NCBI GenBank assembly: GCA_035286705.1
Contig: DATECW010000030.1
Location: 1 to 63,864, forward strand
Length of the DNA stretch: 63,864 bases
Direction of reading: 5' to 3'
DNA from: Bacteroidota bacterium
GTDB taxonomy: Bacteria; Bacteroidota; Ignavibacteria; UBA10030
The first letter of the stretch is position 1. The number at the start of each line of letters is the position of its first letter. Below the pieces are notes generated by a model. That model did no database searches, was not told where the DNA came from, and saw only the letters and a list, made by a program, of their open reading frames with translations. Positions 8,399 to 39,000 of the stretch are shown piece by piece. The position numbers and the translations under genes were made by a program.

Positions 8399-8498
8399 GG
8401 TTTCTCCTTTGTTTCGCGCATAAGTATAGAGATTGAGTCGTTGACAATCAAGAACAGCTCTTTGGACAATTTCATATCCACCAACGCCGGGAGGTACT

Positions 8499-8939
8499 AT
8501 GAAGTACACGAACGAGGTCATCATCAATCTGCCTGTTCGGAAGGTGGTCCAGCTTTTCGACAATCCCGATAACATGAAGAAATGGATGCCTGGATTGCTG
8601 AGCTTTGAACCCATAAGCGGAAAGCCGGGTCAACCGGGGGCAAAGTCGCGGCTGAAATTCAAGATGAAGAATCGGGACGTAGAACTCATAGAAACGGTGA
8701 CAGCCAGAAACCTGCCTGAAGAATTCTCTGGGACATATGAGTGGAAAGGCATGTTCAACATTGTCAAGAACAAGTTCATATCGATTGACGAAAACACGAC
8801 CCGACATGTTGCGGAAAATGAATTTCAATTTAGTGGAATGATGAAACTGTTCGGGTTGGTGATGACCGGCGCGTTCAAGAAGCGGTCACAGGAATATTTG
8901 GATTTGTTCAAATCGTTTGCGGAGAAGGAGGGGAAGTGA
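8499..8939 (+). CDS. SRPBCC (START/polyketide cyclase-like) domain protein
   Basis: MKYTNEVIINLPVRKVVQLFDNPDNMKKWMPGL... is a typical SRPBCC N-terminus. Size 146 aa. Confidence 0.7.
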   Translation: MKYTNEVIINLPVRKVVQLFDNPDNMKKWMPGLLSFEPISGKPGQPGAKSRLKFKMKNRDVELIETVTARNLPEEFSGTYEWKGMFNIVKNKFISIDENTTRHVAENEFQFSGMMKLFGLVMTGAFKKRSQEYLDLFKSFAEKEGK

Positions 8940-9015
8940 GTGATGGAGTATATGAGTAGTGGAGTATGTTGACATTCCGCAGCGATTTCTGTAGTTTTTC
9001 AACGCCTCGTGTCGC

Positions 9016-10101: not shown

Positions 10102-10106
10102 TTCAC

Positions 10107-11522
10107 TTGGACATCCGAGATAACGTGAAAACGGGAAAAAGGCCTTCCCTGCTTCAAAAAGATTCGGTTGAGACCCTCGCCCGCCTGCTCGATGTGCTGG
10201 AGCAGGGGTTCGGAAATCTCCCCCCTTTTCGGCGCACTGAATCCGAGACTCCCGCTCTGATGGAAGTCCTCACTGAAGCTGCAGAGCGTCTGCAAAACAA
10301 CTTTCCCTATTTCCATCCTCTCTACGCCGGCCAGATGCTGAAGCCGCCCCATCCCGTCGCGCGCCTCGCCTATGCCCTCGCCATGTATATCAATCCCAAC
10401 AACCACGCGCTGGACGGCGGTCGTGCCAGTTCGGCGATGGAGAAAGAGGCGGTCGCTCACATCGCCAACATGATCGGCTGGGATATTCACCTCGGTCACC
10501 TTACAGGGGGCGGCACCATGGCGAATCTCGAGGCGCTTTGGGTCTCGGGGCAATTGAATCCCGGAAAGACGATTCTGGCTTCAGAACAGGCGCACTACAC
10601 ACACGGTCGGATTACCGGCGTCCTTGGGCTTTCTTTTGAGTTTGTACCGAGCGATCGGCGGGGCCGCATGGATGCCGACGCCCTGGAAACTCGATTGAAG
10701 AAAGGCGGAGTTGGGACCGTTGTGGCGACAATCGGGACGACGGCAACAGGAGCTGTGGATCCGCTCCCGGAGATTCTCGCGTTGAGGGAACGCTATGGCT
10801 TTCGCCTTCATGCTGACGCCGCATACGGCGGCTATTTTCGGCTCGCCGGCAATCTGTCCACCGATACAACGAAAACGTTTGAACGCCTGGGAGAAGCGGA
10901 TTCGATCGTCATCGATCCCCACAAACACGGCCTCCAGCCGTACGGCTGCGGGTGTGTCATTTTTCGCGATCCCACTGTCGGGCGATTCTACAAGCACGAT
11001 TCCCCCTACACGTATTTCAGTTCCCACGAACTTCATCTCGGGGAAATCAGTCTTGAATGTTCGCGTCCCGGCGCATCGGCTGTAGCCCTCTGGGCAACTC
11101 ACAGGCTGCTGCCGCTCAAACGCGGCGGTGACTTCGCAAAAATGCTTGAACGCTCCCGCAAGGCCGCCCTTTCGCTGTATCGCAAGATTCAATCCGCCAA
11201 ACGATTCGTCGCATCCTTCCCGCCGGAACTGGATATCCTTGTCTGGATTCCCGTCGCTCCAACCGTCAGCAAGGTCTCCTCTTTGTCGCGCTCCGTTTTT
11301 GATGAGGCCGCCAGGAACAATCTCCATCTTGCTCTGGCAGAACTGCCGACGAAGTTCTTTGACCTTCAGTCCGCCGGAATTCAACCAGATCGCGACACTA
11401 TCACATGTTTGCGTTCCGTGCTCATGAAACCGGAGCATCTCGAATGGGTTGATCGGATTTGGGAGATTCTTGAGCTTTCAGCTGAAGGGGTATTCCGACT
11501 CCATGAAGTCAGTGAAGCCTAG
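10107..11522 (+). CDS. PLP-dependent group II amino-acid decarboxylase family protein
   Basis: ...GGTMANLEAL..., HADAAYGG, and SIVIDPHKHGLQPYGCG with the PLP-lysine context. TTG start at 10107. Confidence 0.8.
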   Translation: MDIRDNVKTGKRPSLLQKDSVETLARLLDVLEQGFGNLPPFRRTESETPALMEVLTEAAERLQNNFPYFHPLYAGQMLKPPHPVARLAYALAMYINPNNHALDGGRASSAMEKEAVAHIANMIGWDIHLGHLTGGGTMANLEALWVSGQLNPGKTILASEQAHYTHGRITGVLGLSFEFVPSDRRGRMDADALETRLKKGGVGTVVATIGTTATGAVDPLPEILALRERYGFRLHADAAYGGYFRLAGNLSTDTTKTFERLGEADSIVIDPHKHGLQPYGCGCVIFRDPTVGRFYKHDSPYTYFSSHELHLGEISLECSRPGASAVALWATHRLLPLKRGGDFAKMLERSRKAALSLYRKIQSAKRFVASFPPELDILVWIPVAPTVSKVSSLSRSVFDEAARNNLHLALAELPTKFFDLQSAGIQPDRDTITCLRSVLMKPEHLEWVDRIWEILELSAEGVFRLHEVSEA

Positions 11523-14918: not shown

Positions 14919-17720
14919 CTATTCCTTCTTCTGTTTCTGGTCCTCGATCCTGTATTCTTTTTTTTCCTTTTGGTCCTTCACCATGTCTTGAGGATTGTCA
15001 ATACCGGGCGATTCCCTCATCGCTTTCCAGTCGAACTCCTCATCAAGGGGCGTGAGGGCCTTTTGAGGATCGAAAATTCTCGGATCGGCAGGAAGAGCGG
15101 TATAGGGGGTAAAATCCGGGCTCTCAGTAAACATATCTGAAAGGTCTGTGGCGCCGGCGTCGTACTGGTTCAGATAGGGCAAGCCGAGAATATTGAAGAA
15201 CGTTTTGAAGATACTCCCAAAACTGTAATGGACCTTGCTGACGTAATTGCGTTTCGCATAGGGTGAAACAACCATGAGGATACTCCGGTGTGCGTCAATG
15301 TGATCGACGCCGTTCTGTGCGTCATCCTCCGTGATCACGATTGCCATGTTGTTCCAATACTTCGTATGAGACAGGAATTCCACAATCCTTCCGACGGCAA
15401 GGTCGTTATCCACCATGTAACTTTCACGGAACGGATAACCCGCCTGCGGCCTCTCGCCCGCCCCGTGATCGTTCGGAATAATGACGGTGAGTACCTGAGG
15501 CAGGGACGATCCTCCTTCACCCCATTTCTCATTGAACTCCCTGATGAACAGGCTCACGCGGAACTGATCCGGGATAGCCATATTGTAGGTGGGATAGATT
15601 CTCGACGTTCGATCAAACATCGGCGCGGGAACAGGATAGTTGACGAAGTGTCGCACCCCCGCCTTCTTGAACGTTTCGTTGTAGAACGCCGGTTCGAACA
15701 TCAGTCCAAAGCCGAAGTTGAAGAAATCGACGTCGTTCCTGTCCATGTGTTCCCAAAGAGATCCCGCCTCGTTGTAGTCCTCCGGATAGATGGCTCCTGC
15801 CGAGCCGGTCATTGCCAGGCTCCCGGGCGCTTTGAGATTGGCTCGATATGATCTGTTTTCACCGTAGCTTGCAGGAGCTGTCGTTTCAACCCACTCGTTT
15901 GGATAGGTGTTCACGAGCCAGCGATGTCCATCTGCTGAAACATCGGAGTCGACATAGAAATTATCCGCAATCGAAAACCGCCGCGCGAGTTTCAGGTGGT
16001 TTGCCATGACCGTTGCATCCTTCACGGTCGCCGTCTTCTTCCTATTCGAAAAGGTGACATTCTTTCCATACCGGGCGAGCGAGGCATCACCTTCCGCGTT
16101 TTCCAGCTGGCCGAAGACTTCATCATAGGTTCTGTTTTCTTTTGAGATGAACACCAGGTGCTTGATCGGCGTTTCCCGTTCACCACCATACAACGGAACG
16201 GGATTTCTTCCGCGCTCAATTCTCTTGTTATCGATCGATTCGATTTTGAAGTTGTTTGCAATGACCCGTTCCGTCAACCCGGCTAGCTCGCGGTCGGCGG
16301 GGACATCAAGCACCGAAATAGTCCCTTTCATGAGATTGCCGATATATGTTCCCTCAGGCCCGGCAACATATGTTCTTCCGCCGTTCGGCCCGCTCCCGTA
16401 TCCTTTAGCGTTCGTCACCACCAGCTTCTTCCCATCGGCGGTAACCTTGAGTTTTGCGGGGAACCACCCGACCGGCACGTGGCCGATGACGCTGAATGTC
16501 GCAAGGTCGATGATTCCCACCGCATTGATACCCGCTTCAGCGACATACAGTCTTGTTTCGTCCGGTGATACCGCAAGTCCGAAGGGAATCACACCGCGGA
16601 AATGTTTTACCGCATCATGCGGCTTCAAGGCGATCTCATGGACTATCTTGTCGTTCCGTATGTCGATGACCGAAATATTATCGTTGTTGCCGTTGCTGAC
16701 AAACACATGGGTCGATGTCGCTGCAATGGAGTTCGGACTCGATCCTCCCACTGCAGGAATCCCTTCCACTTTTTCACCGACGAGAACTCCCGTTTTGATT
16801 TTGGCTGTTACCGAAGCATTCATCGGATCCTTGACTGAAACCACCCAGACGGAAAATGATTCAGGAACATTCGGATCTCCAAGGCCCGGAACATCGAGGG
16901 AGTCAACGCGGGTGCCTTCTTCCATTTCCTCCGAACCAAACGCAAAAGGGGGAAACTTGAGTGCCTTGTCAAAGTCACGGGTTTCTTCAATCGTGCCGAT
17001 CTTTTTGTATTCGAACATTCCAACGTTGGCGACATAGACTTTGTCTTCGCTTGGCGACAAGGCGATGCCGAATGGATAACGCCCCATCGGCACACTCCTG
17101 ACCACTGATCGTTGTCTGACATTCGCGATCACAAGCCGAAAGTTTGTCTGGTCGACAGCATAGAGGTATTCGCCATTCGATGTCAGCGCCATGTCCCCGA
17201 TGTACCCGTCAGAATATCGCATGCCGTCGGCAGAAACCGAGCAATCGATCGAGTCAAGTTTGGCCCCCGTGTAAGCACTGAAGAGGTAGATCCTGTTTTC
17301 CTGTCCTCCAGCCACATAGACAATCGAACCATCCTGCGAAATGGCGAGGCCCATAAAGACAGATGCCAGAACACCCTTATCCGTTGAGGGTCCCGGAGGT
17401 ACCTGGCGGACTATCGGATCGCTTCCAAGAATGTCCCGGACAATCGAAATGGAGATGGGCGAGACTCCGGAGTTTGCTGTCACGGCGATCCCTCCGTCGC
17501 TGCTCAGAGCCAATCCAAAAGGATGCGGCGCCACTTCGATCGATCTGCCCACGGGCGTAAGAAGTCTGCCATTGGGAATGACGGTTGTCCCTTTGCGGTC
17601 TATCGTTGTGTAGGATGACCCCGCAGGGGCCGATATCATGGTGACACGATCCTGGGTGGAATTGCAGGAAAAGATCAGTGTGACAGGAAGCAGCAGAAAG
17701 ATTTGTCTCAACGTTCTCAT
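14919..17720 (-). CDS. fusion of an N-terminal YVTN/YncE-type beta-propeller with a C-terminal phosphoesterase (phospholipase C/acid phosphatase AcpA family) domain
   Basis: Lipoprotein signal (LIFSCNS). Repeated ...LYVAN/VYVAG... propeller blades. Phosphoesterase start LVFISKENRTYDEVFGQ and IIPNDHGAG. Confidence 0.8.
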   Translation of the reverse strand: MRTLRQIFLLLPVTLIFSCNSTQDRVTMISAPAGSSYTTIDRKGTTVIPNGRLLTPVGRSIEVAPHPFGLALSSDGGIAVTANSGVSPISISIVRDILGSDPIVRQVPPGPSTDKGVLASVFMGLAISQDGSIVYVAGGQENRIYLFSAYTGAKLDSIDCSVSADGMRYSDGYIGDMALTSNGEYLYAVDQTNFRLVIANVRQRSVVRSVPMGRYPFGIALSPSEDKVYVANVGMFEYKKIGTIEETRDFDKALKFPPFAFGSEEMEEGTRVDSLDVPGLGDPNVPESFSVWVVSVKDPMNASVTAKIKTGVLVGEKVEGIPAVGGSSPNSIAATSTHVFVSNGNNDNISVIDIRNDKIVHEIALKPHDAVKHFRGVIPFGLAVSPDETRLYVAEAGINAVGIIDLATFSVIGHVPVGWFPAKLKVTADGKKLVVTNAKGYGSGPNGGRTYVAGPEGTYIGNLMKGTISVLDVPADRELAGLTERVIANNFKIESIDNKRIERGRNPVPLYGGERETPIKHLVFISKENRTYDEVFGQLENAEGDASLARYGKNVTFSNRKKTATVKDATVMANHLKLARRFSIADNFYVDSDVSADGHRWLVNTYPNEWVETTAPASYGENRSYRANLKAPGSLAMTGSAGAIYPEDYNEAGSLWEHMDRNDVDFFNFGFGLMFEPAFYNETFKKAGVRHFVNYPVPAPMFDRTSRIYPTYNMAIPDQFRVSLFIREFNEKWGEGGSSLPQVLTVIIPNDHGAGERPQAGYPFRESYMVDNDLAVGRIVEFLSHTKYWNNMAIVITEDDAQNGVDHIDAHRSILMVVSPYAKRNYVSKVHYSFGSIFKTFFNILGLPYLNQYDAGATDLSDMFTESPDFTPYTALPADPRIFDPQKALTPLDEEFDWKAMRESPGIDNPQDMVKDQKEKKEYRIEDQKQKKE

Positions 17721-17864: not shown

Positions 17865-18842
17865 ATGAACCAGGTTCTTCTCACCAATCTGACCGGCAGG
17901 TGCTTTGTGAAACACAAGAACTTCATTGGTTGGACAGCCGTTTCGATCTCAACGCTCTTTGCTTCCCTGTGGGCATTTTGGGGCGCAATCGAGAATTTTC
18001 ATGAGGGATGGTATTTCGAATCGTTCTGGGAGAATGTTGCCCTCATGTTTGTTCAGTACGTTCCCTGGTCTCTTGGATTTGTCGTGCTTGGGATTGTCTC
18101 TCTCCGTTGGCCGCGCATAGGAGGGAGTATCTTCATTCTCATCGGAATTCTTCTTCCGACACTTCTCATACGGACCTTTGCCGCTGTTTTCTTCATTGCG
18201 TTGCCGCTAGGGACAGTCGGTCTCCTCTTTTGGTTCGGGCAGCCTGAACCAGGAATCTGGGCCTATCGAACCGTCGTCGGAGTTCCCCTCGCCGTCCTCA
18301 TCGGATTCAGCATTGAACCTGCGTATCGGGTCTCAGGACGGGTTGACGACGGACACTATGGAGCTCGCATCATTGAAGGAAATGGAGTCACATTGCTGTG
18401 GGCTCCGGAAGGACCGGGTTGGCCAGCTCACTGGAGTCAGTTCAAAGCGGGCACATGGGACAGTGCGATGAAAGTTTGCCGGTATCTCACCGAGGATGGC
18501 ACTGCATTGGCTGACACGGCCGTCAATTTCTGGAGACTTCCCACGGTTGACGAAGCCGTGCGATCGCTGGTTCGGCACGGGACAAACGCGGGCGGCACGT
18601 GGGAACCATCATCGCGCGAACCGTCCTACGAAGTCATACCGGACAAAGAGTCTCCGCTGTGGAAAGTCCATTCGCCCATGATCTACTGGTGGACTTCAAC
18701 TGAGGTGAATGACTCGGTGGCGTATCGGATTGCCTACAACGGCGGAGTCCACGCCATGCCAAAGAAGATTCGGATGGGTGATTTTGGATTTCGGGCGGTG
18801 CGAACTGTGACGCCGTCACCTCCAGAGGTCGGCGTCCGTTGA
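17865..18842 (+). CDS. membrane protein (N-terminal multi-TM region) with a C-terminal DUF1566 (Lcl C-terminal-like) domain
   Basis: ORF 17703..18842 trimmed to the ATG at 17865. TM helices in the first ~180 aa. C-terminal FWRLPTVDEAVRSL...YWWTS...FGFRAVR pattern. Confidence 0.6.
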   Translation: MNQVLLTNLTGRCFVKHKNFIGWTAVSISTLFASLWAFWGAIENFHEGWYFESFWENVALMFVQYVPWSLGFVVLGIVSLRWPRIGGSIFILIGILLPTLLIRTFAAVFFIALPLGTVGLLFWFGQPEPGIWAYRTVVGVPLAVLIGFSIEPAYRVSGRVDDGHYGARIIEGNGVTLLWAPEGPGWPAHWSQFKAGTWDSAMKVCRYLTEDGTALADTAVNFWRLPTVDEAVRSLVRHGTNAGGTWEPSSREPSYEVIPDKESPLWKVHSPMIYWWTSTEVNDSVAYRIAYNGGVHAMPKKIRMGDFGFRAVRTVTPSPPEVGVR

Positions 18843-19747: not shown

Positions 19748-22700
19748 ATGAAGATTGCTCGTTCGTTATTGATCCTCGTTTCCGTTCTCGCTGCCGGCGC
19801 GACCGCACAAACCAATGTCGGTGGTTCAATCAACAAGGATTCAACGTGGACTTTGTCGGGGAGTCCTTACATTGTCACCAGCGACTTATCCCTGAACAGT
19901 CCATTCACGCTTACCGTCGACTCCGGGGTGGTTGTCCGTTTCCAGGCCAACACAAACTTGTACGTCAACGGTACGGCGAGTCTTGCGGCCCGTCATGCGA
20001 GATTTACATCTTCGAAAGACACGGCCGGGGGCTCACCGGCCAAAGGGGATTGGGCATTCATTCAGATCGGGAACAATTCGGCCGCCACAGCGACCTTCGA
20101 CACATGTGTTATCCTGTGGGGCGGAACTACTTCGTTCCCGTCAAACAATCCTTCTCTCTATGTCTATGGCGGAACGGCAGCCCTGCGAAACAGCATCGTC
20201 TCTTCGAAGAACCATGGAGTCATGGTCGACGGCGGAACCACGACGATAGAGAACTCCAACATTTCTGATTGTGATTGGCCCGCGTCATACTACCGTCAGG
20301 GGAACCTCATATTCGAGGGATCTAACATTCTGACCGGGGCCACGCACAACGGCATCCTCATTCTTTTTGGTTCATCTTCAGGCGCCTTCACTCTTGATAC
20401 GGTGAGTGTCCCCTATGTCTTCAATACAAACTTCACAGTGAATTCCGGAAGTACGCTCAACGTCCCAACGGGTAGCGTTGTTAAATTCACCAGCTACAAC
20501 GGACTTGTTGTCAACGGAGCCCTCGTCGCCAGCGCTGCCGAGGGAAACACCATCACGTTCACGTCATACCTGAACGATAACGCAGGAGGCGATACGAATG
20601 CGGACGGCGCTCTTTCGGCGCCCACCGCAAGTATTTGGGATGGTGTTACGTTCAATGATGCAAGTGCCGACTCGTCAAGCATCATGAAACGGTGTGTTGT
20701 GAGCTGGGCCGGATACTATCAGAAGGGCGGCATTTCCCTCTATAACGCAAGTCCGACCATCGACAGCTGCTCGATGACGAACAACTACTACGGCGTCATG
20801 ATGCAAGGAACATCGAGCCCGAACTTCTCCAACAATGACATCGGCACGAGCACTGTCGTTCCGATTGCTCTCTCGTTTTCTGCCAATCCCTTGTTCCTGA
20901 ACAACTCGTTCTCAGCGTCGGACAATCAATACGATGCGATCGGTATTCTCTCAGAGACGGTTGTCGCCAATTCCTACCTCCCGATTCGCTCTGTAACATC
21001 GATTCCCAATGTGACATACTTGATGCTCGGGTCCGTGACCATCCCCCCTGCATACACCCTCACGATTCAGCCGGGAGTGGTGATCAAGTCCTACAATTAC
21101 TACAATCGACTTATTGTTCAGGGAAAGATCGTCGCCCAGGGTACATCCGACAGCACGATCGTCTTCACGTCGGTTCACGACGACCAATACGGAAATCCGT
21201 TCGATACAAACAAAAACGGGAATATTACCAACCCAACGCGCGGAGACTGGGGCGGAATTACACTTGAGTCGACAAACGATACCACGTCAATCATCAAGTA
21301 TTGCGTCCTTCGATATGGCAATACGCCGAGTGCTTATTACAACGGCGTCTATACGCAGGGACTCATCACCCTTATCAACACGACCGCCACTATTGAAAAC
21401 GACACCTTGACGGACAACGTCTACGGCGTTTACGCATTTCTGGTCTCAAAGCCAAAGATCGGAAACTGCGTTTTTGTCAATTCACAGTTTACTCCCGTCG
21501 CAATGTCGATATCGGCGAATCCTACGTTCACCGGCTCTAATGTAATGCTCAACCCGGGATTGCGGGCACTCGGCATTATTGGGCATGCTGTCTCCTCAAA
21601 CGGGACGGTTTACAGACGGGATTTCGCCGGGTACACCAACATTACGTATGTCGTGCTGGACGATGTGACGATCAATTCGGGCACGTTTGTTACTGTTGAA
21701 CCCGGGGTCGTCATGAAAATGAATCCGAGCGCGGGCATTTACGTGAACGGGGGATTTTCAGCCAAGGGTACGATTGCGAACGGACAGGTGTACTTTACGT
21801 CAATCAAGGATGATAACATCGGGAATCCTCTCGACACGAACGGTGACGGACTCGCAACCGCCCCCGACCAGGGGAACTGGTATACCATCCGGTTCCAGGA
21901 TACCAGCGTCGACTCGGCCTGCGTCCTTGACAGCACCGTTATTCAGTATGGAGGAAATGCCAGCTATGGAGCAGTGACGCTGACCAACTCCAATGCGACC
22001 ATCAAGAATTCTCTCCTCGCCCAATCGTACTACTACGGTGTCAAATGTGAGGGGAACTCTGCTCCGCAGATTGCCCGCGTCTCGTTCGAGAGCAACAGGC
22101 TTGATCCGATTGCGATGTCGCTTCTCTCGAATCCCATATTCACCAACATTACGTTCAACGCGAACGGTACCAGCGGCATCAGGATTTTGGAAGGAACCCT
22201 TTCCTCGAACGCGACACTGAACAAGCGGGATGTCGCCGGAATCACAAACATTGCCTACATCGTCGACAACCTGACCATCGCACCGAGCGCGACACTGACC
22301 ATCGCTCCCGGCGTGGTCATCAAATTCAATTACTATTACTACGGGATTGATGTGCAGGGCGGCCTCAGGGCTGAAGGGACAGCGACGCAGAAGATCGTCT
22401 TCACGGCTCTTGCGGACGACTCCAACGGCGGCGACACAAACAACGACGGCAGTTCAAGCTCGCCGAGCAAAGGTGCATGGAACAGCATTGACTTTCAGAA
22501 CTCCAGTATCGACACAGTGAATTCGCTCAAGAATTGCATTGTGCGATACGGCGGCGGTTACAACTACAGCAACGATTATGGGATGATGCGCATCTACAGC
22601 GCTCATGTCGCAATCGACAGCTGCGATTTCACACTGAGCAATACGTCCGGTATCGGCATCTTCGGGAGCGCCAATCCGTCGATTACAAACACGGACATCA

Positions 22701-25000
22701 CCGCTGTAAACTACACTCCGATCACCATGAGCATGTTTTCCACACCCACCTTCGGGAATAACACCATCCTCAATGTTGGGTACACGGCCATTGGGATCAA
22801 ACCCGAGACGTATTCACAAAACGCGACGGTACCCCTTCGCAACTTTGGCGGATACACCGGCATCACGTACGTGCTCTGGGGAAATATCACTGTGAACTCA
22901 GGGACGGTGCTCACGATTCCTGCAGGGGCGGTGTTCAAGAATTACGGGTTCTCTGTTGATGGCACCCTGAAGGTCATGGGGACGTCTGGCAACCCGGTCG
23001 TCTTCACCAACCTCCGCGATGACGACTATGGTAATCCAACGGACACGGAGCAGAACGGTTCTGCCACAAGCCCGTACATCGATAACACCTATCGGATCTA
23101 CTACAGCGACCAGAGCATCGATACGGCTGATGTCGTTCAATACGCGGTGATTCGGTATGCAACTTATGGTATCGACCTCCAGCAGGCCGCTCCAAGCATT
23201 TCAAACTGTGCGTTTTCGGAAAACGATTGGGGAGTGAGATTGAGCGGAGTCTCCGGTCCGACGATCAATAACTGCACATTCGACAATCTCGACGATGCGC
23301 CGATTCTCATGTCCCTTGCAGCGAATTTCACGCCAACAGGAACGAACGTCATCAGCGGAACGACTTACAGAGCGTTGGGGATCGTGAATGAAACTCTCGC
23401 CGGCGATGCAACGATGACCAAACGCAACTTCGCAGGCGTGAATAACATCCCCTACCTGGTCTCGGGCCTTACTGTTGGAACGAGTTCCACGCTCACCATT
23501 CAGCCGGGCGTGATCGTCAAGTTCCGCCAGTACTACGGCATGAACATCCAACGCGGACTCCTGGCAATCGGAGGAAGCCATCCCGACAGCACGATCGTCT
23601 TCACATCTGAGCGGGACGACTTCTACGGCGGCGACACGAACGCAGATTCAAATGCCACGGCGCCGAGTTCGGGTTATTGGGGCACCATCACATTCGAAGA
23701 CCTCTCGTACGATCCCGATTGCAGGATCGAGCACGCCGTCATTCGATACGGAGGTTACAGCTATGCCGGACTCAGGATGGTCAATGCAAGTCCGACAATT
23801 CTCTACACGTCCATCCGCGACAATTACAAAGGAATCCGGGCGGAGGGTTCTTCCAATCCCGTTGTGAACTACTGTGACATCTACAAGAATACGTACTGGG
23901 GCGTCGAAAACGTCAACAAGACGTTCACGATCAACGCTCAATGGAATTGGTGGGGAGTCAATAGCGGGCCGACCGTTACCGATGTTTCCCCGGGAACTCC
24001 CACAGGATCGGCTTCAACGGTTACGACAGCCGTCGATTTCAGTAATTTCCTGGCCTCGGGCGCCGATCAGCCGCTGGCCGGCGATGTCAGCTTGAGCGGC
24101 AATATCCAGGCGTTCGACGCATCCCTGATCTTGAAATGGCTTGCTGACAACGTAGCCAACCCGTTGAATCCACTCCAGCAAAAGGTTGCGGATGTCAGCG
24201 CTCAAGGGGGCATCACCTCCATGGATGCGTCTCTTATCCTTCAATACGTGGTCGGCAAGATCCCCATCTTCCCCATCGAGTTCAATCGCAGCATTCAGGG
24301 TCCGCAGTCAGGAAAGGCCCAGAGCGTTGCAGGCTCGATTGCCCTGAGCAGCGGCAGCGTCGAACGAGGCAAGCAGGTGACGGTCACACTCAATGCACAG
24401 GGACTTGCCGATCTCTACGCGGCGGGCATGGAATTGGGATTCAATCCAGAGGTTCTTCATCCTGTTTCCGTCCAGGCCGCCGGATTGGCGCAGGGAACGA
24501 TGTTTGAATACGGTGTCAAGGAAGGCCGGCTGAATATCTTCTTTGCTTCCTCAGAACCACTGAAGGGCGACGGCAGCCTTCTGACGATCACCTTCGAGGC
24601 GAACAAAGACGCCCGCGGCTCGCTCGACGAGCCGATCACGTTCAACAGTGTGACGTTGAATGAGACCAACGCCTCGGCACAGGCATCAGCCGGAACAATT
24701 AGCGTAAAAGGCCGCCCAGTGACGTATCAGCTGCATCAGAACTATCCGAATCCCTTCAATCCGTCCACGGTCATTTCGTACGAGGTACCGAACGACGGCG
24801 AGCATGTCCGATTGGAAATCTACAGTCTCAGCGGGCAGCTCGTGAGGGTCCTGCTGGACAAAGAGGAAGCGGCAGGTGAATACAAGATTACATGGGATGG
24901 ACGCTCCGACAACGGAAGCCGCGTCAGTTCTGGAATGTATCTCTATCGGATCAAGGCAGGGTCGTTCGTCAGTGTCAAAAAGATGATCATGGTGAAATAA
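19748..25000 (+). CDS. 1750-aa secreted protein: seven ~200-aa parallel beta-helix modules, dockerin-like repeat pair, cohesin-like module, T9SS C-terminal sorting domain
   Basis: AGGAGA SD 8 nt upstream. Signal peptide ending AGATAQ. Seven recurrences of the block xVFTS..DD..G.(D/P).DTN..G....P..G.W..I.F......(C/A)V(I/L)RYG. WNWWG motif. C-terminal QNYPNPFNPSTVISY. Confidence 0.9.
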   Translation: MKIARSLLILVSVLAAGATAQTNVGGSINKDSTWTLSGSPYIVTSDLSLNSPFTLTVDSGVVVRFQANTNLYVNGTASLAARHARFTSSKDTAGGSPAKGDWAFIQIGNNSAATATFDTCVILWGGTTSFPSNNPSLYVYGGTAALRNSIVSSKNHGVMVDGGTTTIENSNISDCDWPASYYRQGNLIFEGSNILTGATHNGILILFGSSSGAFTLDTVSVPYVFNTNFTVNSGSTLNVPTGSVVKFTSYNGLVVNGALVASAAEGNTITFTSYLNDNAGGDTNADGALSAPTASIWDGVTFNDASADSSSIMKRCVVSWAGYYQKGGISLYNASPTIDSCSMTNNYYGVMMQGTSSPNFSNNDIGTSTVVPIALSFSANPLFLNNSFSASDNQYDAIGILSETVVANSYLPIRSVTSIPNVTYLMLGSVTIPPAYTLTIQPGVVIKSYNYYNRLIVQGKIVAQGTSDSTIVFTSVHDDQYGNPFDTNKNGNITNPTRGDWGGITLESTNDTTSIIKYCVLRYGNTPSAYYNGVYTQGLITLINTTATIENDTLTDNVYGVYAFLVSKPKIGNCVFVNSQFTPVAMSISANPTFTGSNVMLNPGLRALGIIGHAVSSNGTVYRRDFAGYTNITYVVLDDVTINSGTFVTVEPGVVMKMNPSAGIYVNGGFSAKGTIANGQVYFTSIKDDNIGNPLDTNGDGLATAPDQGNWYTIRFQDTSVDSACVLDSTVIQYGGNASYGAVTLTNSNATIKNSLLAQSYYYGVKCEGNSAPQIARVSFESNRLDPIAMSLLSNPIFTNITFNANGTSGIRILEGTLSSNATLNKRDVAGITNIAYIVDNLTIAPSATLTIAPGVVIKFNYYYYGIDVQGGLRAEGTATQKIVFTALADDSNGGDTNNDGSSSSPSKGAWNSIDFQNSSIDTVNSLKNCIVRYGGGYNYSNDYGMMRIYSAHVAIDSCDFTLSNTSGIGIFGSANPSITNTDITAVNYTPITMSMFSTPTFGNNTILNVGYTAIGIKPETYSQNATVPLRNFGGYTGITYVLWGNITVNSGTVLTIPAGAVFKNYGFSVDGTLKVMGTSGNPVVFTNLRDDDYGNPTDTEQNGSATSPYIDNTYRIYYSDQSIDTADVVQYAVIRYATYGIDLQQAAPSISNCAFSENDWGVRLSGVSGPTINNCTFDNLDDAPILMSLAANFTPTGTNVISGTTYRALGIVNETLAGDATMTKRNFAGVNNIPYLVSGLTVGTSSTLTIQPGVIVKFRQYYGMNIQRGLLAIGGSHPDSTIVFTSERDDFYGGDTNADSNATAPSSGYWGTITFEDLSYDPDCRIEHAVIRYGGYSYAGLRMVNASPTILYTSIRDNYKGIRAEGSSNPVVNYCDIYKNTYWGVENVNKTFTINAQWNWWGVNSGPTVTDVSPGTPTGSASTVTTAVDFSNFLASGADQPLAGDVSLSGNIQAFDASLILKWLADNVANPLNPLQQKVADVSAQGGITSMDASLILQYVVGKIPIFPIEFNRSIQGPQSGKAQSVAGSIALSSGSVERGKQVTVTLNAQGLADLYAAGMELGFNPEVLHPVSVQAAGLAQGTMFEYGVKEGRLNIFFASSEPLKGDGSLLTITFEANKDARGSLDEPITFNSVTLNETNASAQASAGTISVKGRPVTYQLHQNYPNPFNPSTVISYEVPNDGEHVRLEIYSLSGQLVRVLLDKEEAAGEYKITWDGRSDNGSRVSSGMYLYRIKAGSFVSVKKMIMVK
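24080..24259 (+). other. dockerin-like duplicated segment within the giant protein (aa 1445-1504)
   Basis: GDVSLSGNIQAFDASLILKWL and ADVSAQGGITSMDASLILQYV, two 12-residue loop-plus-helix repeats about 35 aa apart. Confidence 0.55.
24329..24712 (+). other. cohesin-like module within the giant protein (aa ~1528-1655)
   Basis: GSIALSSGSVERGKQVTVTLNAQGLADLYAAGMELGFNPEVL...GSLLTITFEANKD...ITFNSVTLNE, the same pattern as the three modules in the next gene. Confidence 0.55.
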
Positions 25001-25040
25001 TCCACCGTTGCTCATCATACGACACTGAAAGGATAAATCC

Positions 25041-27344
25041 ATGAATCCGAGGTTGAAACATCTTCTCATCGCATGCATCCTGATCCTGGGGGCGCATGCG
25101 GCCGCAGAGGCCGGGCCCATACGGCTGGCCTTCCGGAACATGACTGTTGTCGGCGGGACGACGTTCCTCGTTCCTGTCCATGTCGACAGCTCGTTAACCG
25201 GATTGAATGTGATTTCCTATCAGCTGGATATCTCGTTCAATTCCACCTATCTCACATACGACACCGTGATCACAACGGGATCCATGACCGAATCATGGAC
25301 GTACGTGGAAGGGAATGTTCCTTCCGCCGGCAGACTTCTCGTGGCCGGGAGCGGAGCAACGGCGCTGAGCGATACAGGTCGGCTCGTCTTTCTCCGGTTC
25401 AAGGCGAAAGTACCTGCCTCCATCGTCGGCACGAGCATTTCATTTTACGCCGGCACAACGTTGCTCAACGAAGGCGGGATCGCCCTCTCACTTGTGAACG
25501 CCACAATCACTGTCAATGTCCCGCCGTTCATCACGGTCTCACCCAACACGGCGGTTCTGACACGGAATGACACACAACAGTTCACGGTTTCAGGCGGCAC
25601 GGGACCGTACACGTGGACAACGACAGATCCGGCCAAAGCGACCATCAACGCATCGGGCCTTCTCACTGCCACCAATCCGGGTTTTGTGCAGGTAGTCGCT
25701 GCCGACGCATCGGCAGTCAAGGATACATCTGGTCTCATAGAAATTCGCGGGATGAAGTTGTCTGTCCGAGATAGCAGCGTCTATCAGGGACAGATTCTTG
25801 ATCTGTCGATTCTGTCCACCGATGTAACGGGACTCGGGATTACCTCGGGTCAGCTGACCGTTACATTCAATCAGAGTCTCTGGACTGCGACGGACGTGCT
25901 TGTTGCAGGCACCATTCTCGCTTCGGCCTCGCCCGAATTCTCTGCAAGCCCGGGGAAGGTCTCTGTCTCCTTTGCGGGAATCTCTGCCATCAGCGGATCG
26001 GGCACCCTGCTCAAGATCCGACTGCAGGCAACGACTTCGACTTATGGAACATCGACCATCGGATTCCAAAATGTCGTCTTCAATGAGAATCTTCCTGCGA
26101 ACACGCAGAACGGATCCGCGGGCGTATTGCAGCTTGCCACCGTGAATGTCACTCCGGGAGGTACACTAAGTCTCCTGAAGGGAGATTCCCTACAGTTCTT
26201 CGCATCGAGTGGTACAGCCCCATACACGTGGAGCGTTTCTGATTCTTCGAAGGCCGCGATTTCTTCAACCGGAGTGCTCACAGTCCTCCGCGGGGGATCG
26301 GTCAAAGTGACCGTCCGCGATTTCAACGGTGCATCGGGGACGAGCGGAACAATCAACCTCTATGACTTTCGCCTGACCGTACCCACCTACTCACAGCTGG
26401 TCATGACGGCATCTGATACGACGGTTGAACTTCCTCTGCTCGTCACTGCCAATGACACCGGGTTCTTTGCATTCCAGTTCAAAGTCACGTATGGAACGGG
26501 ATACTACCTGAAACTCGACAGCATTCTTACCGACGGAACACTGGCGACAGGCTGGAATGTGGTCCCCGGGTATTCGAGCGGAAATGTTCAGATTGCCGCG
26601 GCGACCACCAATGCGGTGATGTCCGGCGGCACACTGATCAGGCTGCGATTTGCGGTTCCCGATTCGACCCCAAGGCCATCGACGACGTACATCAATCTCA
26701 CGAACGTCCTGTTTAACGAGGGCGCGCCGATTCCGCTGATCGAAAATGGATGGCTGCAGATTCGATCAACAAATGCGAAGCCTTCACTCTCCTTTCAGAC
26801 TCCCTCCTCGTTGGATTCAGTCGAGGCCGGAGCGACGCAGGAATTCTCCGTTTCCTCGTACGATCCGGACGGCGACGCCTTGACGTACACCTGGAAAGTC
26901 AACGGCACTGCCGAACAAACGGGGAGTTCCTCAAGCTTCTCACGCGCGTTCGCGAATCCGACTGACAGCATCAATGTCACGGTAGTATTTCAGGACCCGT
27001 GGGGATTGAAGGACAGCGCGTCGTGGTGGTTCAAAGTGTACGTGATCACCGGGGTCACTGAAGAGGATCCTACGCTTCCCCGCGGATTCGCGCTTCTTCA
27101 GAATTATCCGAATCCCTTCAATCCGTCGACAGTGATCAGCTTTCAGCTGTCAGCGATCAGCAGGGTGAGGTTGAGTGTGTACAACATCCTTGGCCTGGAG
27201 GTGGCTGTGGTTGCTGACGGGACATTGCCAGCGGGGATGCATTCCTTCCGTTGGGATGCATCGGGATTTGCCAACGGGACATACTTCTACCGTTTGCAGG
27301 CAGGTGAGCATTCACAGACTCGCAAGCTGGTTTTACTGAAATAA
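25041..27344 (+). CDS. 767-aa scaffoldin-like surface protein: 3 cohesin-like modules alternating with 2 Big_2-like modules, a PKD-like module, and a T9SS C-terminal sorting domain
   Basis: Signal peptide. Cohesin-like aa ~25-159, 238-366 and 443-574 (each ...V.V......L.....(Y/F)Q(L/F)...(F/Y)....L.......G.L(V/L/I)(F/K/R)(L/I)R(F/L)...). Big_2-like ...QFTVSGGTGPYTWTT... and ...QFFASSGTAPYTWSV.... C-terminal QNYPNPFNPSTVISF. Confidence 0.85.
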   Translation: MNPRLKHLLIACILILGAHAAAEAGPIRLAFRNMTVVGGTTFLVPVHVDSSLTGLNVISYQLDISFNSTYLTYDTVITTGSMTESWTYVEGNVPSAGRLLVAGSGATALSDTGRLVFLRFKAKVPASIVGTSISFYAGTTLLNEGGIALSLVNATITVNVPPFITVSPNTAVLTRNDTQQFTVSGGTGPYTWTTTDPAKATINASGLLTATNPGFVQVVAADASAVKDTSGLIEIRGMKLSVRDSSVYQGQILDLSILSTDVTGLGITSGQLTVTFNQSLWTATDVLVAGTILASASPEFSASPGKVSVSFAGISAISGSGTLLKIRLQATTSTYGTSTIGFQNVVFNENLPANTQNGSAGVLQLATVNVTPGGTLSLLKGDSLQFFASSGTAPYTWSVSDSSKAAISSTGVLTVLRGGSVKVTVRDFNGASGTSGTINLYDFRLTVPTYSQLVMTASDTTVELPLLVTANDTGFFAFQFKVTYGTGYYLKLDSILTDGTLATGWNVVPGYSSGNVQIAAATTNAVMSGGTLIRLRFAVPDSTPRPSTTYINLTNVLFNEGAPIPLIENGWLQIRSTNAKPSLSFQTPSSLDSVEAGATQEFSVSSYDPDGDALTYTWKVNGTAEQTGSSSSFSRAFANPTDSINVTVVFQDPWGLKDSASWWFKVYVITGVTEEDPTLPRGFALLQNYPNPFNPSTVISFQLSAISRVRLSVYNILGLEVAVVADGTLPAGMHSFRWDASGFANGTYFYRLQAGEHSQTRKLVLLK

Positions 27345-27364
27345 AGCTTCCGCAACTCTTTTCA

Positions 27365-27400
27365 AGCCCGCCCCGCAATGCGACGGCGGGCTTTCTTTTT
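27365..27400 (+). terminator. rho-independent terminator after the two-gene T9SS unit
   Basis: AGCCCGCC-12 nt loop-GGCGGGCT followed by TTCTTTTT. Confidence 0.75.
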
Positions 27401-27458
27401 GGGGGATGATTGAAGAATACCCTTACTTTTTTGGACTTGTTTTCTCATCTTCTGTCAC

Positions 27459-28698: not shown

Positions 28699-29331
28699 TC
28701 ATTTCAGAAGCGTCATTCTCTTCCGGGCAACTACCTGATTGTGCGAGGCATCGGTCACAGTCAATTGATAGACGTATACTCCGCTGGCGAGCGACAATGC
28801 ATCCCACGTCTCCTGATGATAACCGGGCGGCTTCTCCCCCACGATCACGCTGCCGACGTTTTGTCCAATCAGATTGAACACGTTCAGATTCACTTTGCTG
28901 TTTACAGACAACTGATAACTGATGACTGTCGCAGCGTTGAACGGATTGGGATAGTTCTGAAACAATTCAAACTTGTCGGGCGCAGCCACCGAAACAACCA
29001 TCTCCTTCCTCCATGATTGCCCGTTCGGCAACGAGACTGCAAACACCAATCTGTGCTCCTCCCCGACCGGTGCAGTTCTGTCGACAGAAAACGTATATGT
29101 GATCGGTTTTTCGGAATTCCCCTCCAACGACGGAATGGATTCCTTCCCATTCGAGAAAGTAATCCACGAAGGGATACTCATGATTTCGATGGTGACCGAC
29201 CGGGCCTCCACCGGAGATTCATTCTTCACAGAGAGTTCCAGAGTATTTCCTTCCGATGCAAAGGGAAGAATGACAGTCTGTCCCTGCAGCGATGAGAGCA
29301 GGAGAAACGGCAACAAGGCAAGTGTTTTCAT
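28699..29331 (-). CDS. small secreted protein with a T9SS C-terminal sorting domain
   Basis: ORF trimmed to the ATG at 29331. Signal MKTLALLPFLLLSSLQGQ. C-terminal FQNYPNPFNAATVISYQL...GVYVYQL. Confidence 0.75.
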   Translation of the reverse strand: MKTLALLPFLLLSSLQGQTVILPFASEGNTLELSVKNESPVEARSVTIEIMSIPSWITFSNGKESIPSLEGNSEKPITYTFSVDRTAPVGEEHRLVFAVSLPNGQSWRKEMVVSVAAPDKFELFQNYPNPFNAATVISYQLSVNSKVNLNVFNLIGQNVGSVIVGEKPPGYHQETWDALSLASGVYVYQLTVTDASHNQVVARKRMTLLK

Positions 29332-29603
29332 ATGACCCCCATAGGATTGGATTTGAACAGCGATCGGGAAGCGGAAGACCGGAGAATGAATGAACCCCCT
29401 TTGGCATGGAAGGACCCCCGGAACACTCAACGCTTCGCCTTATCGCCGAGTGGACAGCCAACAGTAAGAGATTTCTTTTCAAATGTCAAGGCGAGTGTGA
29501 AAATCAGCCGTTACGTCGTCCTTGAATCTTCAGTCCCGTGTTTCTATTTTTCCTGGAGTCACGAAAATACAAAGTCCGAGTCCGCAAAAGAGATTGGAAA
29601 GAA

Positions 29604-36063: not shown

Positions 36064-39000
36064 TTACTTCGTCAGCACAAACTTCTTGCTTATCGATTTC
36101 CCTCCAAAATCCAGCTTGTAAAAATACACACCGCTCGGGAGCTTCGAAGCATCGAACATCGTCTCGTGTGATCCCGCCTTCATGGTTCCGTTGACCAACT
36201 CTGCCACAGCTCTTCCGAGCAGGTCATAAACCTTCAACGTGACATTTCCATCTTCTGGGAGCACAAAGCTGATCGTGGTGGAGGGATTGAAGGGATTAGG
36301 GAAATTCGATATCTCTAATTGACCGCTACCCGTCGTTGCCGATGCTGTGACGCTTCCTTCCAAACCAACCTTGCTGATTCCCAGAATAGCCAGCGTCGCA
36401 TCATCGATTGAAGAGCCGTGTTTGGTTAAGAGTTCAGCCAGATATTTGTCGGAAGTCTCCTTCTGGCTCACATCGAACCATTTGAGAGTAGCGAGACACA
36501 GCAGGGCATTCTTCTCGTTCTCGCTGTTTGGATATTTCTGAGCGATATTTAACGCCACATTCTCACACTCAGCGAAACGGTTCGTAGCGGCATACATTCC
36601 CATAAGGACTTCCGATGCTGCAAGGCCCAGTTCGCCTTCAGTGCTTGTGTATGACTCAACAAGAGGCACAATCGATACATCGTTGGCTGTCCGGGATAGC
36701 TCGAGCAGTCCCACCATTGCCCTGACCCGAAGCCGCTCCTCAGTTGATTCCTGTATTATCTGTGAATAAAGGTCTTTTGAGATGGTATGGTCACCGCGCA
36801 GGAAAGCGGCAACGGCGGTTTCGAGCTTTGCGGTCTTTTCGCCCATGGTCGGAGTCGGGACGGCTGCTGCCACTGCTTCACCACCTCCACCCTCGGGGCA
36901 ATTTTGTGACTGAAGCGCATAGTCGGCATATAGGTAGGAGGTGCCATCAACATACAACTGACCTGGAGGGACAGGATAGACCCCCCACCAGTTCCCCTCC
37001 GCCAGAATGTAGGAGTATGCCACAGAACTCGCCTTGAGCTGCGTCGATGAGTCAATCTTGTTGCACGCTCCGTAGTAGTGAGGAGAACCCTGAGTGAAAT
37101 TATAATCTCCAAAGTAGATGGTGGAATGGTTGTTCGCCCGGATGCCGTGGAGGTTGGTGTATACGGAATTCTGGCCGGCAAAAGCTTCATAGTCGCCGGT
37201 CCAGTTCGTTGTGACAGAAGCATAGTTCTCGCAGTAGACAGTGAAAATCCCGCCCCGAAGCGCATTGCTACCGACTCGTGGGGCATTCGAGTTATAAACG
37301 ACTATTTGCCCGTAGGCGCTGGGAGAGCCGTTGTTCTGAATACTATTGGAGATGACAACAGGGCAGCCAGTGCCGTTTCCGCTGGCCACGACCCCGTGAT
37401 AGAAGTTATTCCTGATGGAATTTGACTGAATTCTCGGTGAGGAGTTCCCCTGAATGACAATGCCGTTGCCTGCACCAAGGTCCTTGATCGTCGAGCTGCT
37501 GATCAATCCGGTTGAACTTGATGCAAACCGCACGCCGTTGGAGGCGCCACCTTGGCCCTGAATAGTTGTAAAGGTCACAGTGGGATTGGAACCATAGAAT
37601 TGCAGTGCTCCGTTTGAAGAGAAGTTGGCGTTGTCAACCGTGCAATGGTCCATTGTGAAGGAGCTGACATTCGTCACTTTCACCGGTTCCGTGGCATAAG
37701 AAATCGTGCAATAGGTGAGCGAAGATCCATTTGCGCTGGAGCCGCTAAACTCAAGGCCTGTCCATGAAGAGCCGCTCTTGGTGAAGGTTATCCTCTGGCC
37801 TGATAAGCCGTTGGCAACGAGCACTCCATTCACAACAAGCTTTGAGCCGTTGGGGAACTGAAGAGTTGTCCCGGGACTCAAGGTGAGGGTTGCACCTGAA
37901 GCAACGGTGACTGTTCCAGCCATGGTGTAAGTTCCGGCGGGGATGGTGACGCTGGTGGTGATGTTTGTTGTTGAATAGTTGGCTGTGATGGATGCGCCAG
38001 AAGATGTGAACACGACCGCAGCGGAATCATACCCATTAGCTCCCGGTCCCGCATCTTGTAATGTGGCTCCGCTTTTTGTCCATCCCTGAAAGAAGGCATG
38101 GTAGCTTTGGCCTTGGACTTGTTGGATGTTCAGGGCGCGGACGGAGTAGTAAGGCGGAGTCCACGCGGGCGGGCCGCTTTGATTCAAGAATACACCTTGA
38201 TGGCTTTGACCTGTGCTGAGATCGAATGAAGCTTGCGAATACCATGCGGCATCCTGATGGCCGCGGTTTCGCATGCCATAGGGGGACTCGTTGAGGTCGA
38301 TGTACCACGGGTCGCGAAATTCAACGCTGCCTCCTGTCAACGAAGTCTGGATTGTCGCATTGGAGGCCGAATTGAATTGGGATCGTATCTGGGTCACTCC
38401 GGGTTGGATGGAAAAATCCCTGTGATTTTTGACGTCTGAGTCGGTATTCCATGTGTTGTGTTTTTCAGTGGAACCGCTCTTAAACGCCTGCAGGGCGCGA
38501 ATGACTTCTGTTGTATTGCTCTCCATGAGGACAGATTCACCCGCGCTATAATCAGAAAAGGCACCTTGATTCCATCGTCCTAGTTTGCCAAAAGAGGTGG
38601 ATGAAACGTCTTTCTGATCCATAGTAACCAACTGATAGTTTTGCGGGATTAGCGTCGCAGTCGTGAGTTCGCGGAAGAAAGTCTTCCTTACGTTGCCAGT
38701 CGTGTTTTCCATCCATAATGCATACGCTTTACCGAGACGGGAGAAAAGTCCGTGATAGTCTCCAACAAAGCCTTCGGTCCCAAGCGTCGTGAATCCCCCT
38801 GACTCTCCCACGATAGTTTCCGTAAATGAAGCAAAACCGTTGGTCGAGTACCGAAACTTCGAGTAGATTGGAATGCTTTGGTCAGGTCCGCTGGTAGAGT
38901 AATACAGAACTGAGATGACACCTCCAACATCAATGCTGATGGCTGGCATCCACTGATCACCAGATGATCCGTCAACAGTCACGTTGCTACCCCATGTCAG

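Follow-up and report, generated by a model that had tools for sequence, protein, structure and literature searches.

Architecture of the locus

The window analysed here comprises 63,864 nucleotides (positions 1–63,864 of contig DATECW010000030.1) from a Bacteroidota bacterium (assembly GCA_035286705.1), and the subject of this work is a cassette of two adjacent genes within it. Gene 1 encodes an array of beta-helix modules followed by a dockerin, a cohesin and a type IX secretion system (T9SS) sorting domain at the C-terminus (CTD), while gene 2 encodes a protein with three cohesins and a CTD of its own; both open reading frames (ORFs) lie on the same strand, 40 bp apart, exactly where an earlier first-pass annotation of this DNA had placed them. 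Cohesin–dockerin pairing is the textbook assembly principle of the cellulosomes of Gram-positive bacteria and has become a workhorse of synthetic biology; here, as sequence comparison suggests, the gene pair appears to be a conserved two-gene operon of bacteria of the Fibrobacteres–Chlorobi–Bacteroidetes (FCB) group, that is, of Bacteroidota in the broad sense, Ignavibacteria-like. The two genes, their cohesin and dockerin modules and the immunoglobulin-like (Ig) modules between them are listed below (aa, amino acids; AF2, AlphaFold2).

19748–25000, + strand: gene 1, secreted beta-helix/dockerin/cohesin/T9SS CTD protein, 1750 aa (ORF, Pfam, NCBIfam; orthologs of 1754–1960 aa in all cassettes examined)
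24077–24283, + strand: type-I-like dockerin of gene 1, aa 1444–1512, two repeats of calcium loop plus helix (Pfam PF00404, PDB profile, AF2)
24350–24703, + strand: cohesin of gene 1, aa 1535–1652 (Pfam PF00963, AF2, Foldseek)
25041–27344, + strand: gene 2, secreted cohesin–Big_2–cohesin–Big_2–cohesin–Ig–CTD protein, 767 aa (ORF, Pfam; all-beta in AF2)
25113–25520, + strand: cohesin 1 of gene 2, aa 25–160 (Pfam 27.8 bits; family profile against 6KGC_A, E 4e-4, and 2XDH, E 5e-3)
25527–25712, + strand: Big_2 Ig-like module 1, aa 163–224 (PF02368 30.8 bits, cutoff 22.8)
25734–26126, + strand: cohesin 2 of gene 2, aa 232–362 (Pfam 36.3 bits; profile against 6KGC_A, E 1.2e-7, 2VN5_A, E 3.7e-7, and 2XDH, E 3.6e-6)
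26139–26351, + strand: Big_2 Ig-like module 2, aa 367–437 (PF02368 31.3 bits)
26370–26774, + strand: cohesin 3 of gene 2, aa 444–578 (Pfam 22.0 bits, under the 24.1 cutoff; profile against 2XDH, E 5e-8, 6KGC_A, E 4e-5, and 4UYP_A, E 5e-5)
26808–26990, + strand: Ig/PKD-like spacer of gene 2, aa 590–650 (PKD 20.6 bits, cutoff 23.5, and PKD_4 19.8 bits, both below cutoff; AF2 strands with a predicted local distance difference test score, pLDDT, of 85–92)

Cohesin and dockerin modules

The proposal made in the first-pass annotation depended on significant profile matches to cohesins and dockerins; these were obtained with Pfam, with profiles searched against the PDB and with AF2 models compared by Foldseek, and the homology of both kinds of module is confirmed as genuine. 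The AF2 models are of single chains, one covering aa 1395–1665 of gene 1 (271 residues) and the other the whole of gene 2. The cohesin-like beta-sandwich described in gene 1 scores 47.6 bits with PF00963, is modelled with a pLDDT of 96–98 and has the nine-stranded jelly-roll fold of cohesins; indeed, its top 50 Foldseek matches in the PDB are all cohesins, the best being 2XDH (TM-score 0.78, E 1.6e-12), with TM-scores of up to 0.79 when normalised to the target, and further matches include the type I cohesins of Clostridium cellulolyticum, C. thermocellum, Acetivibrio cellulolyticus and others. As to gene 2, family profiles of 16 sequences each were searched against the PDB, and for all three modules the sole significant matches (E < 0.01) were solved cohesins; the alternation of three cohesins with two Big_2 modules stands as first described. 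The AF2 model of the whole protein is all-beta (pLDDT 89.1, and 90–96 in the cohesin modules); its low predicted template modelling score (pTM 0.47) is expected from a beads-on-a-string layout, and a whole-chain Foldseek search returned only generic multi-Ig strings, being uninformative on single modules. The PKD-like module reported before the sorting domain is likewise supported, though by scores below cutoff, and is limited to the closest relatives. The four cohesins of the cassette are mutually 23–31% identical, the three of gene 2 being 27–31% identical among themselves.

The two tandem dockerin-type segments noted at first in gene 1 are borne out by several lines of evidence. Dockerin_1 (PF00404) matches aa 1444–1501; the score is 22.8 bits if the whole of gene 1 is searched, marginally below the cutoff of 22.9, and rises to 29.2 bits for the slice; moreover, the module aligns over 69 residues, including a GKIxxFPxE tail, with the dockerin of A. 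cellulolyticus ScaB (4UYQ_B, E 6e-6), and AF2 places helices at residues 61–72, 81–87 and 97–107 of the construct (pLDDT 93–98). A duplicated segment of about 22 residues is present, each copy consisting of an EF-hand-like calcium loop (positions 1, 3, 5 and 12) and a helix. In 30 family members, loop 1 reads D1-V-S3-L-N5-G6-x-I/V8-Q-A-Y/F-D12, with N or S at position 5, and loop 2 reads D1-V-S3-G-x5-G/A-G7-I8-T-A/S-Y/F-D12, both being followed by A-S-L-I/V-L-Q/K. Conservation in these members covers the calcium-loop residues as well as four near-symmetric positions of the helices (A/S10, Y/F11, L17 and Q/K18), and since the same helix residues follow both loops, the putative recognition positions are nearly symmetric between the repeats, as in dockerins with a dual binding mode. 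This is the only dockerin found in the window.

The modules differ in their degree of conservation. The dockerin is the best conserved of the cassette (57–86% identity), the cohesin of gene 1 is the least conserved (26–40% in more distant relatives) and the cohesins of gene 2 are intermediate (29–53%); that the dockerin should be the most conserved module, as against 26–53% for the cohesins in distant relatives, indicates selection on a binding function. Variants of the architecture were also found. In one beta-helix protein (P0294) the tail reads dockerin–cohesin–dockerin–cohesin, the two modules having been duplicated as a unit, and the same dockerin subtype, together with a CTD, occurs on other passengers, namely an alpha/beta hydrolase (P0371), a NosD-like protein (P0396) that adjoins no cohesin gene and a 913-aa protein (L022, 53–2794) whose dockerin follows an unannotated N-terminal region of 620 aa. 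The idea that dockerin, cohesin and CTD form a promiscuous tail carried by many types of passenger was considered and rejected; sequences matching both dockerin and cohesin are essentially all tails of beta-helix proteins, starting with "...NWWGxNxGP". The dockerin profile search also returned proteins consisting largely of tandem dockerins (P0278, P0289, P0284 and P0280), e.g., one with 10 Dockerin_1 matches in 762 aa.

Conservation of the gene pair

Conservation of the pair in relatives had been named beforehand as the decisive test of the proposal, and in all the relatives examined (11/11) a gene 1 homolog and a gene 2 homolog are adjacent, in the midst of flanking genes that are otherwise unrelated. 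The search started from gene 2 homologs at 79, 60, 42, 38, 44, 38, 38, 37 and 37% identity, and on every contig examined a gene for a beta-helix/dockerin/cohesin/CTD protein of 1750–1960 aa lies directly upstream. A start from the dockerin gave the same picture, a beta-helix–dockerin–CTD protein (P0356) being followed 25 bp on by a protein that resembles gene 2, with 30% identity over aa 20–577. Two of the loci (L007 and L086) appear to belong to one organism, so that the 11 cassettes represent about 10 independent lineages; the metagenome-assembled genomes (MAGs) that carry them are labelled, among others, Ignavibacteriae, Bacteroidales (JAADJA01) and Candidatus Cloacimonetes. The gap between the two genes is 25–75 bp, with the exception of the locus from a Candidatus Cloacimonetes MAG (GCA_021108055.1; L093, 1265–9929), a three-gene variant in which the pair is separated by the gene for a cohesin protein of 279 aa, whose C-terminus shows a weak CTD-like match (FlgD_ig), and in which the gene 2 ortholog has three cohesins and no sorting domain. 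The claim that the two genes form one unit is thus upheld, with this extra gene as the one exception.

The layout of gene 1 is apparently widespread. An exhaustive search of representative proteins with the dockerin profile retrieved 16,757 proteins at E ≤ 1e-3, and the best 150 of these include at least 28 clusters (at the 50% identity level) of proteins of 1450–2300 aa with the gene 1 layout; in each gene 1 ortholog a single strong dockerin is present, some 300 aa before the C-terminus. Searches by other routes gave less: a word-indexed homolog search with the dockerin alone found only fragments of up to 125 aa, and a scan of genome contigs with the alignment of gene 2 orthologs, swamped by the ubiquitous sorting-domain motif NYPNPFNP, yielded one true cassette (L007) in 79 loci, its Ignavibacteriae MAG being the only named cassette-bearing genome from that scan. 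The NYPNPFNP-type matches did reveal the phyla in which this CTD is in use. Gene 1 of the closest relative (L001) is called as a protein of only 528 aa, and truncation was considered; it was rejected, as a scaffold gap of 100 N lies at 8220–8319 and the frame continues across it. A gene for a family 18 glycoside hydrolase (GH18) was seen about 8 kb from another ortholog cassette (L003).

Signal peptide and beta-helix modules of gene 1

The N-terminal four fifths of gene 1 contain the following features.

19748–19807, + strand: Sec signal peptide, aa 1–20, MKIARSLLILVSVLAAGATA, followed by QTN (read directly from the sequence)
19811–24037, + strand: seven tandem right-handed beta-helix modules of about 200 aa, aa 22–1430 (self-alignment, Pfam, NCBIfam)

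The signal peptides of both proteins were read by eye; that of gene 1 has a basic n-region, a hydrophobic core and A-T-A preceding the predicted cleavage site, a pattern repeated in the orthologs. Cleavage at ATA|Q would leave an N-terminal glutamine (aa 21, 19808–19810), and several orthologs also have Q there; a "Q-rule" for the residue that follows signal-peptide cleavage has been described in Bacteroidetes (PMC5837995). The seven modules first described after the signal peptide are recovered both by self-alignment, with pairwise identities of 22–38%, and by Pfam Beta_helix (PF13229), which gives 130 bits in seven stretches and matches all seven of them; NosD matches two of the seven (38 bits), and TIGR03804 para_beta_helix scores 28.5 bits, above its cutoff. 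The region contains 14 cysteines in seven pairs, exactly two per module, and the motif FTSxxDDxxGxDTNxDGxxxxPxxGxW occurs in every module except the first, which is degenerate; in this motif the acidic stretch DDxxGxDTNxDG precedes PxxGxW. Each module may possess one disulfide and one calcium-binding loop.

No catalytic family (polysaccharide lyase, PL; GH, including GH28; carbohydrate esterase, CE; AlgG) and no carbohydrate-binding module (CBM) was matched in gene 1 at E ≤ 1 in Pfam or NCBIfam, and a profile search of the PDB with the beta-helix modules gave nothing significant, the best match being the C5-epimerase AlgG (E about 0.2). The payload of gene 1 thus looks like a generic right-handed beta-helix array, and the rod would most likely serve in adhesion, in polymer binding or as a surface coat rather than in catalysis.

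Secretion and probable surface location

Both proteins end in a sorting domain of type A.

24743–24997, + strand: T9SS type A sorting domain of gene 1, aa 1666–1750 (PF18962 36.5 bits as slice; TIGR04183 37.4 bits)
27105–27332, + strand: T9SS type A sorting domain of gene 2, aa 689–764 (PF18962 35.7 bits; TIGR04183 39.2 bits)

The TIGR04183 cutoff is 23 bits, and in the full-length proteins PF18962 (Por_Secre_tail) gives 29.5 bits for gene 1 and 35.7 bits for gene 2, against a cutoff of 27; with a Sec signal peptide at one end and a type A sorting domain at the other, both proteins bear the signature of T9SS type A cargo, as had been claimed. Each beta-helix module has its two cysteines and the mature gene 2 protein has none, which fits an extracytoplasmic location. 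The O-glycosylation sequon D[ST][AILVMT] is mildly enriched in gene 2 (25041–27341), with 8 occurrences against 3.4 expected from shuffles (p about 0.014), and is not significantly enriched in gene 1 (11 against 7.5 expected). Two further ORFs of the window end in type A sorting domains, one of 243 aa (28699–29430, − strand) and one of 1333 aa (36064–40065, − strand), the latter with a weak BNR-like match at its N-terminus, and the organism evidently uses CTD-dependent export widely.

The anchoring of both partners by T9SS, as first proposed, may apply in the window, in which both carry a CTD, but not throughout the family: more than 185 gene 2 homologs were found, and about half of those listed lack a T9SS tail in their precomputed Pfam domains. 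No sorting domain of any type could be recognised in four tail-less homologs that were checked (P0071, P0064, P0077 and P0058). In one locus (L088) the gene 2 homolog (8001–10382) has no sorting domain and the adjoining gene 1 keeps its own CTD. In Porphyromonas, both the cleavage of the CTD and the anchoring of the cargo to anionic lipopolysaccharide (A-LPS) are established (PMC8545088).

Spacer, terminator and neighbouring genes

Two non-coding features accompany the pair.

25001–25040, + strand: intergenic spacer of 40 bp, without a terminator
27364–27401, + strand: probable intrinsic terminator, GC-rich stem of 9 bp enclosing a further stem of 3 bp, then TTTCTTTTT (sequence and fold energy)

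The short spacer, which lacks a terminator, is consistent with co-transcription of the two genes. The "clean terminator" reported after gene 2 is only in part sustained: a GC-rich hairpin (27364–27393) followed by a T-run is indeed there, but the 66-nt segment containing it folds at −25.8 kcal/mol, only modestly better than shuffled sequences (z −1.9), and a consensus terminator scan missed the hairpin because of its compound loop; its role as a terminator is plausible, not proven.

Neither the cassette nor its neighbouring genes within the window yielded a GH or a CBM, in agreement with the first-pass remark on their absence. The two upstream neighbours are probably unrelated to the cassette; one (14919–17720, − strand) encodes a 933-aa beta-propeller and phosphoesterase protein, which adjoins the cassette elsewhere only in the closest relative (L001), and the other (17868–18842, + strand) a membrane protein with DUF7670 and an Lcl_C-like region. 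For the rest, the window holds core chromosomal genes of an ordinary kind, among them uvrB, pgk, gap, ispG, folD and purM; proteins that cluster with its UvrB at 90% identity or more carry the label "Bacteroidota bacterium".

Comparison with known systems

By the published definition, a cellulosome comprises a scaffoldin with at least two cohesins and at least one GH fused to a dockerin (PMC13487519). Gene 2, with its three cohesins, has the first of these components, and the second is absent, the only dockerin of the window residing on a beta-helix protein devoid of GH, PL and CBM; since a dockerin-fused GH is lacking, the cassette, as far as its sequence tells, is not a cellulosome under that definition. 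Its modules are nevertheless homologous to those of the clostridial type I pairs, such as the ScaB dockerin and ScaC cohesin of A. cellulolyticus (4UYP/4UYQ) and the modules of C. cellulolyticum (2VN5) and C. acetobutylicum (6KGC): all four cohesins match solved cohesins by profile or by fold, the dockerin is duplicated and near-symmetric, as in dual-binding-mode dockerins, and gene 2 has several cohesins. Unlike clostridial cellulosomes, the cassette has neither a dockerin-fused glycoside hydrolase nor a CBM and belongs to a Gram-negative host, T9SS sorting domains replacing the S-layer homology (SLH) or sortase anchoring; furthermore, the cohesins within gene 2 are only 27–31% identical, loop position 3 of the dockerin is Ser instead of the clostridial Asp/Asn, and there is one dockerin per four cohesins, with a dockerin and a cohesin adjoining on one polypeptide.

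A resemblance may also be sought among non-cellulosomal cohesin and dockerin proteins (Peer et al. 2009), whose parent proteins, in the summary given in PMC13487519, are non-catalytic, as those of the cassette appear to be; in particular, the non-cellulosomal cohesin of Archaeoglobus fulgidus (2XDH) is the best structural match of the gene 1 cohesin and the best profile match of cohesin 3 of gene 2. What sets the cassette apart from the proteins covered by that summary is its bacterial FCB lineage, its T9SS sorting domains, its fixed layout as an operon of two genes and its payload of seven beta-helix modules. Among FCB organisms, the closest published counterpart is the cellulosome-like complex of Ca. 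Stygibacter, a member of the Cloacimonadota (Williams et al. 2021, PMC8542988), in which a cohesin protein with a C-terminal surface-attachment domain is accompanied by dockerin-bearing secreted proteins, and which, like the cassette, has been deduced from sequence only; the phylum is shared as well, one cassette being found in a Cloacimonetes MAG. The Ca. Stygibacter scaffoldin, however, has 3755 aa and contains CBM2/CBM3, and the dockerins of that system are carried by GH18, GH57 and peptidases (PMC8542988). The cassette has no CBMs or enzymes; its dockerin resides on a beta-helix protein that also bears a cohesin and a CTD, and the conserved gene pair is its defining trait.

The S-layer of Tannerella forsythia, made of TfsA and TfsB, provides a parallel of a different kind, as it too consists of two large surface proteins that both have T9SS sorting domains and that co-assemble in a T9SS-dependent manner (PMC4175972). 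For the present pair, a lattice of this kind would be hypothetical. The TfsA and TfsB genes are adjacent, and the two proteins are not known to have cohesin or dockerin modules.

Possible modes of assembly

Taken together, the data are, in our judgement, rather better explained than not by a conserved, non-cellulosomal cohesin–dockerin assembly that is exported by T9SS and displays a beta-helix rod on the cell surface. Both proteins would be exported by Sec and translocated by T9SS, their sorting domains being then removed, and, on the model of Porphyromonas and Tannerella, would stay on the outer surface. The single, putatively calcium-dependent dockerin of gene 1 would plug into a cohesin, either its own neighbour (in cis or head to tail between copies) or one of those of gene 2; the partners would thus build a heteromeric surface structure, held together non-covalently, with a beta-helix rod of about 1400 residues on display. 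On the identity of the partner the evidence points both ways. The model of aa 1395–1665 of gene 1 has a pTM of 0.78 with about 44 residues disordered and only about 200 ordered. By our calculation, placement of the cohesin alone would give about 0.45–0.5, so that a value of 0.78 calls for a defined position of the dockerin with respect to the cohesin; it thus favours packing of the dockerin against the cohesin of gene 1 itself, whether in cis or, just as well, between copies arranged head to tail. On the other hand, the strict operon linkage, together with the contrast between a conserved dockerin and a fast-evolving own cohesin, favours a partner in trans in gene 2. The term "scaffoldin-like", as applied to gene 2, is to be taken as an analogy.

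Several points weigh against such a surface assembly. The dockerin–cohesin binding is predicted, both AF2 models being of single chains; one dockerin faces four cohesins, which at 23–31% identity cannot all be equivalent sockets for it, and in its second repeat the calcium-ligand position 5 is variable, so that the second calcium site may be atypical. Many gene 2 homologs have no recognisable sorting domain, so that dual anchoring is not universal, and T9SS cargo may be released instead of anchored (PMC10202324). No component of the T9SS machinery (SprA/Sov, PorK/L/M/N, PorU/V) is encoded within the 64 kb of the window; its presence in the organism is supported indirectly by the at least two further CTD-bearing ORFs of the window and by the FCB affiliation. 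Finally, the role of the beta-helix is argued solely from the absence of enzyme signatures.

Among the alternatives, it may be supposed that the dockerin binds only its own cohesin, as a compact unit preceding the sorting domain, and that gene 2 is a general scaffold whose cohesins recruit other dockerin-bearing T9SS cargo, the two genes being co-expressed without direct binding of their products. The confident dockerin–cohesin arrangement implied by the pTM would agree with this, as would the duplication of the two modules as a unit in P0294, the same dockerin subtype with a CTD on P0371, P0396 and L022, the 16,757 representative proteins matching the dockerin profile and the divergence of the gene 2 cohesins, which is to be expected of differing specificities; nevertheless, we consider it unlikely, as it takes a direct functional link to account readily for the 11/11 adjacency, an obligate cis pair would not be expected to combine the most conserved module with the least conserved one (26–40%), and the intrachain contact modelled by AF2 may equally mirror an intermolecular one. 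At the opposite extreme, the cohesin and dockerin modules might have become spacers or stalks that no longer bind, in two independent T9SS surface proteins that are neighbours by chance. Non-cellulosomal modules of this kind do occur widely, most of them being uncharacterised (Peer et al. 2009, cited in PMC13487519), the whole-chain fold of gene 2 resembles generic multi-Ig stalk proteins and the second calcium loop of the dockerin may be atypical; yet no segment of the cassette, with its 2500 residues, is better conserved than the dockerin, whose calcium-loop and helix residues are invariant, the adjacency is kept over phylum-level distances and AF2 predicts a defined dockerin–cohesin arrangement, all of which makes a loss of binding improbable.

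A polysaccharide-degrading complex similar to a cellulosome, in which the beta-helix would belong to the pectate-lyase superfamily, as a lyase, hydrolase or epimerase, and would be docked on a cell-anchored scaffoldin, seems to us equally hard to credit. Many PL and GH families are right-handed beta-helices, AlgG was matched, if weakly and without significance (E about 0.2), in Cloacimonadota a scaffoldin anchored by a CTD, together with enzymes that bear dockerins, has been inferred (PMC8542988), and the GH18 gene near the L003 cassette could be read in the same sense; however, neither protein has any PL, GH, CE or CBM match at E ≤ 1, the seven repeats, being nearly equivalent, point to an array with a structural or binding role instead of a single catalytic cleft, no genes for carbohydrate-active enzymes flank the cassette in the window or recur across relatives, and a dockerin-fused GH is demanded by the published definition (PMC13487519). 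The surface assembly displaying a beta-helix rod, which we prefer, might be extended to a Gram-negative surface structure of a new kind, in which dockerin–cohesin tails polymerise head to tail and the three cohesins of gene 2 cross-link or anchor the chains, giving an S-layer-like or fibrillar coat across the FCB superphylum, with the gene 2 proteins that have no sorting domain held by the plug alone; this extension is speculative, and we think it doubtful while granting it some plausibility.

Significance

All of the component families of the cassette are known, and cohesin–dockerin modules outside cellulosomes, as well as in T9SS organisms, have already been published; the main new result is the synteny of the gene pair, which is kept across distant lineages in every relative examined. 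In the literature searched, no description was found of this two-gene cassette or of a dockerin–cohesin–CTD tail on a seven-module beta-helix protein. The plug and socket of the cellulosome thus occur in a conserved cassette that is carried by Gram-negative FCB bacteria, extends over dozens of deep sequence clusters and couples them to type IX secretion and to an apparently non-enzymatic beta-helix payload. If the predicted binding is true, the natural role of the cohesin–dockerin interaction would extend to the architecture of the outer-membrane surface, and four divergent cohesins together with a very conserved dockerin would provide new orthogonal parts; moreover, a handle would be gained on thousands of proteins annotated as "hypothetical", "cohesin domain-containing" or "Ig-like domain-containing" in uncultured Ignavibacteria, Bacteroidota and Cloacimonadota.

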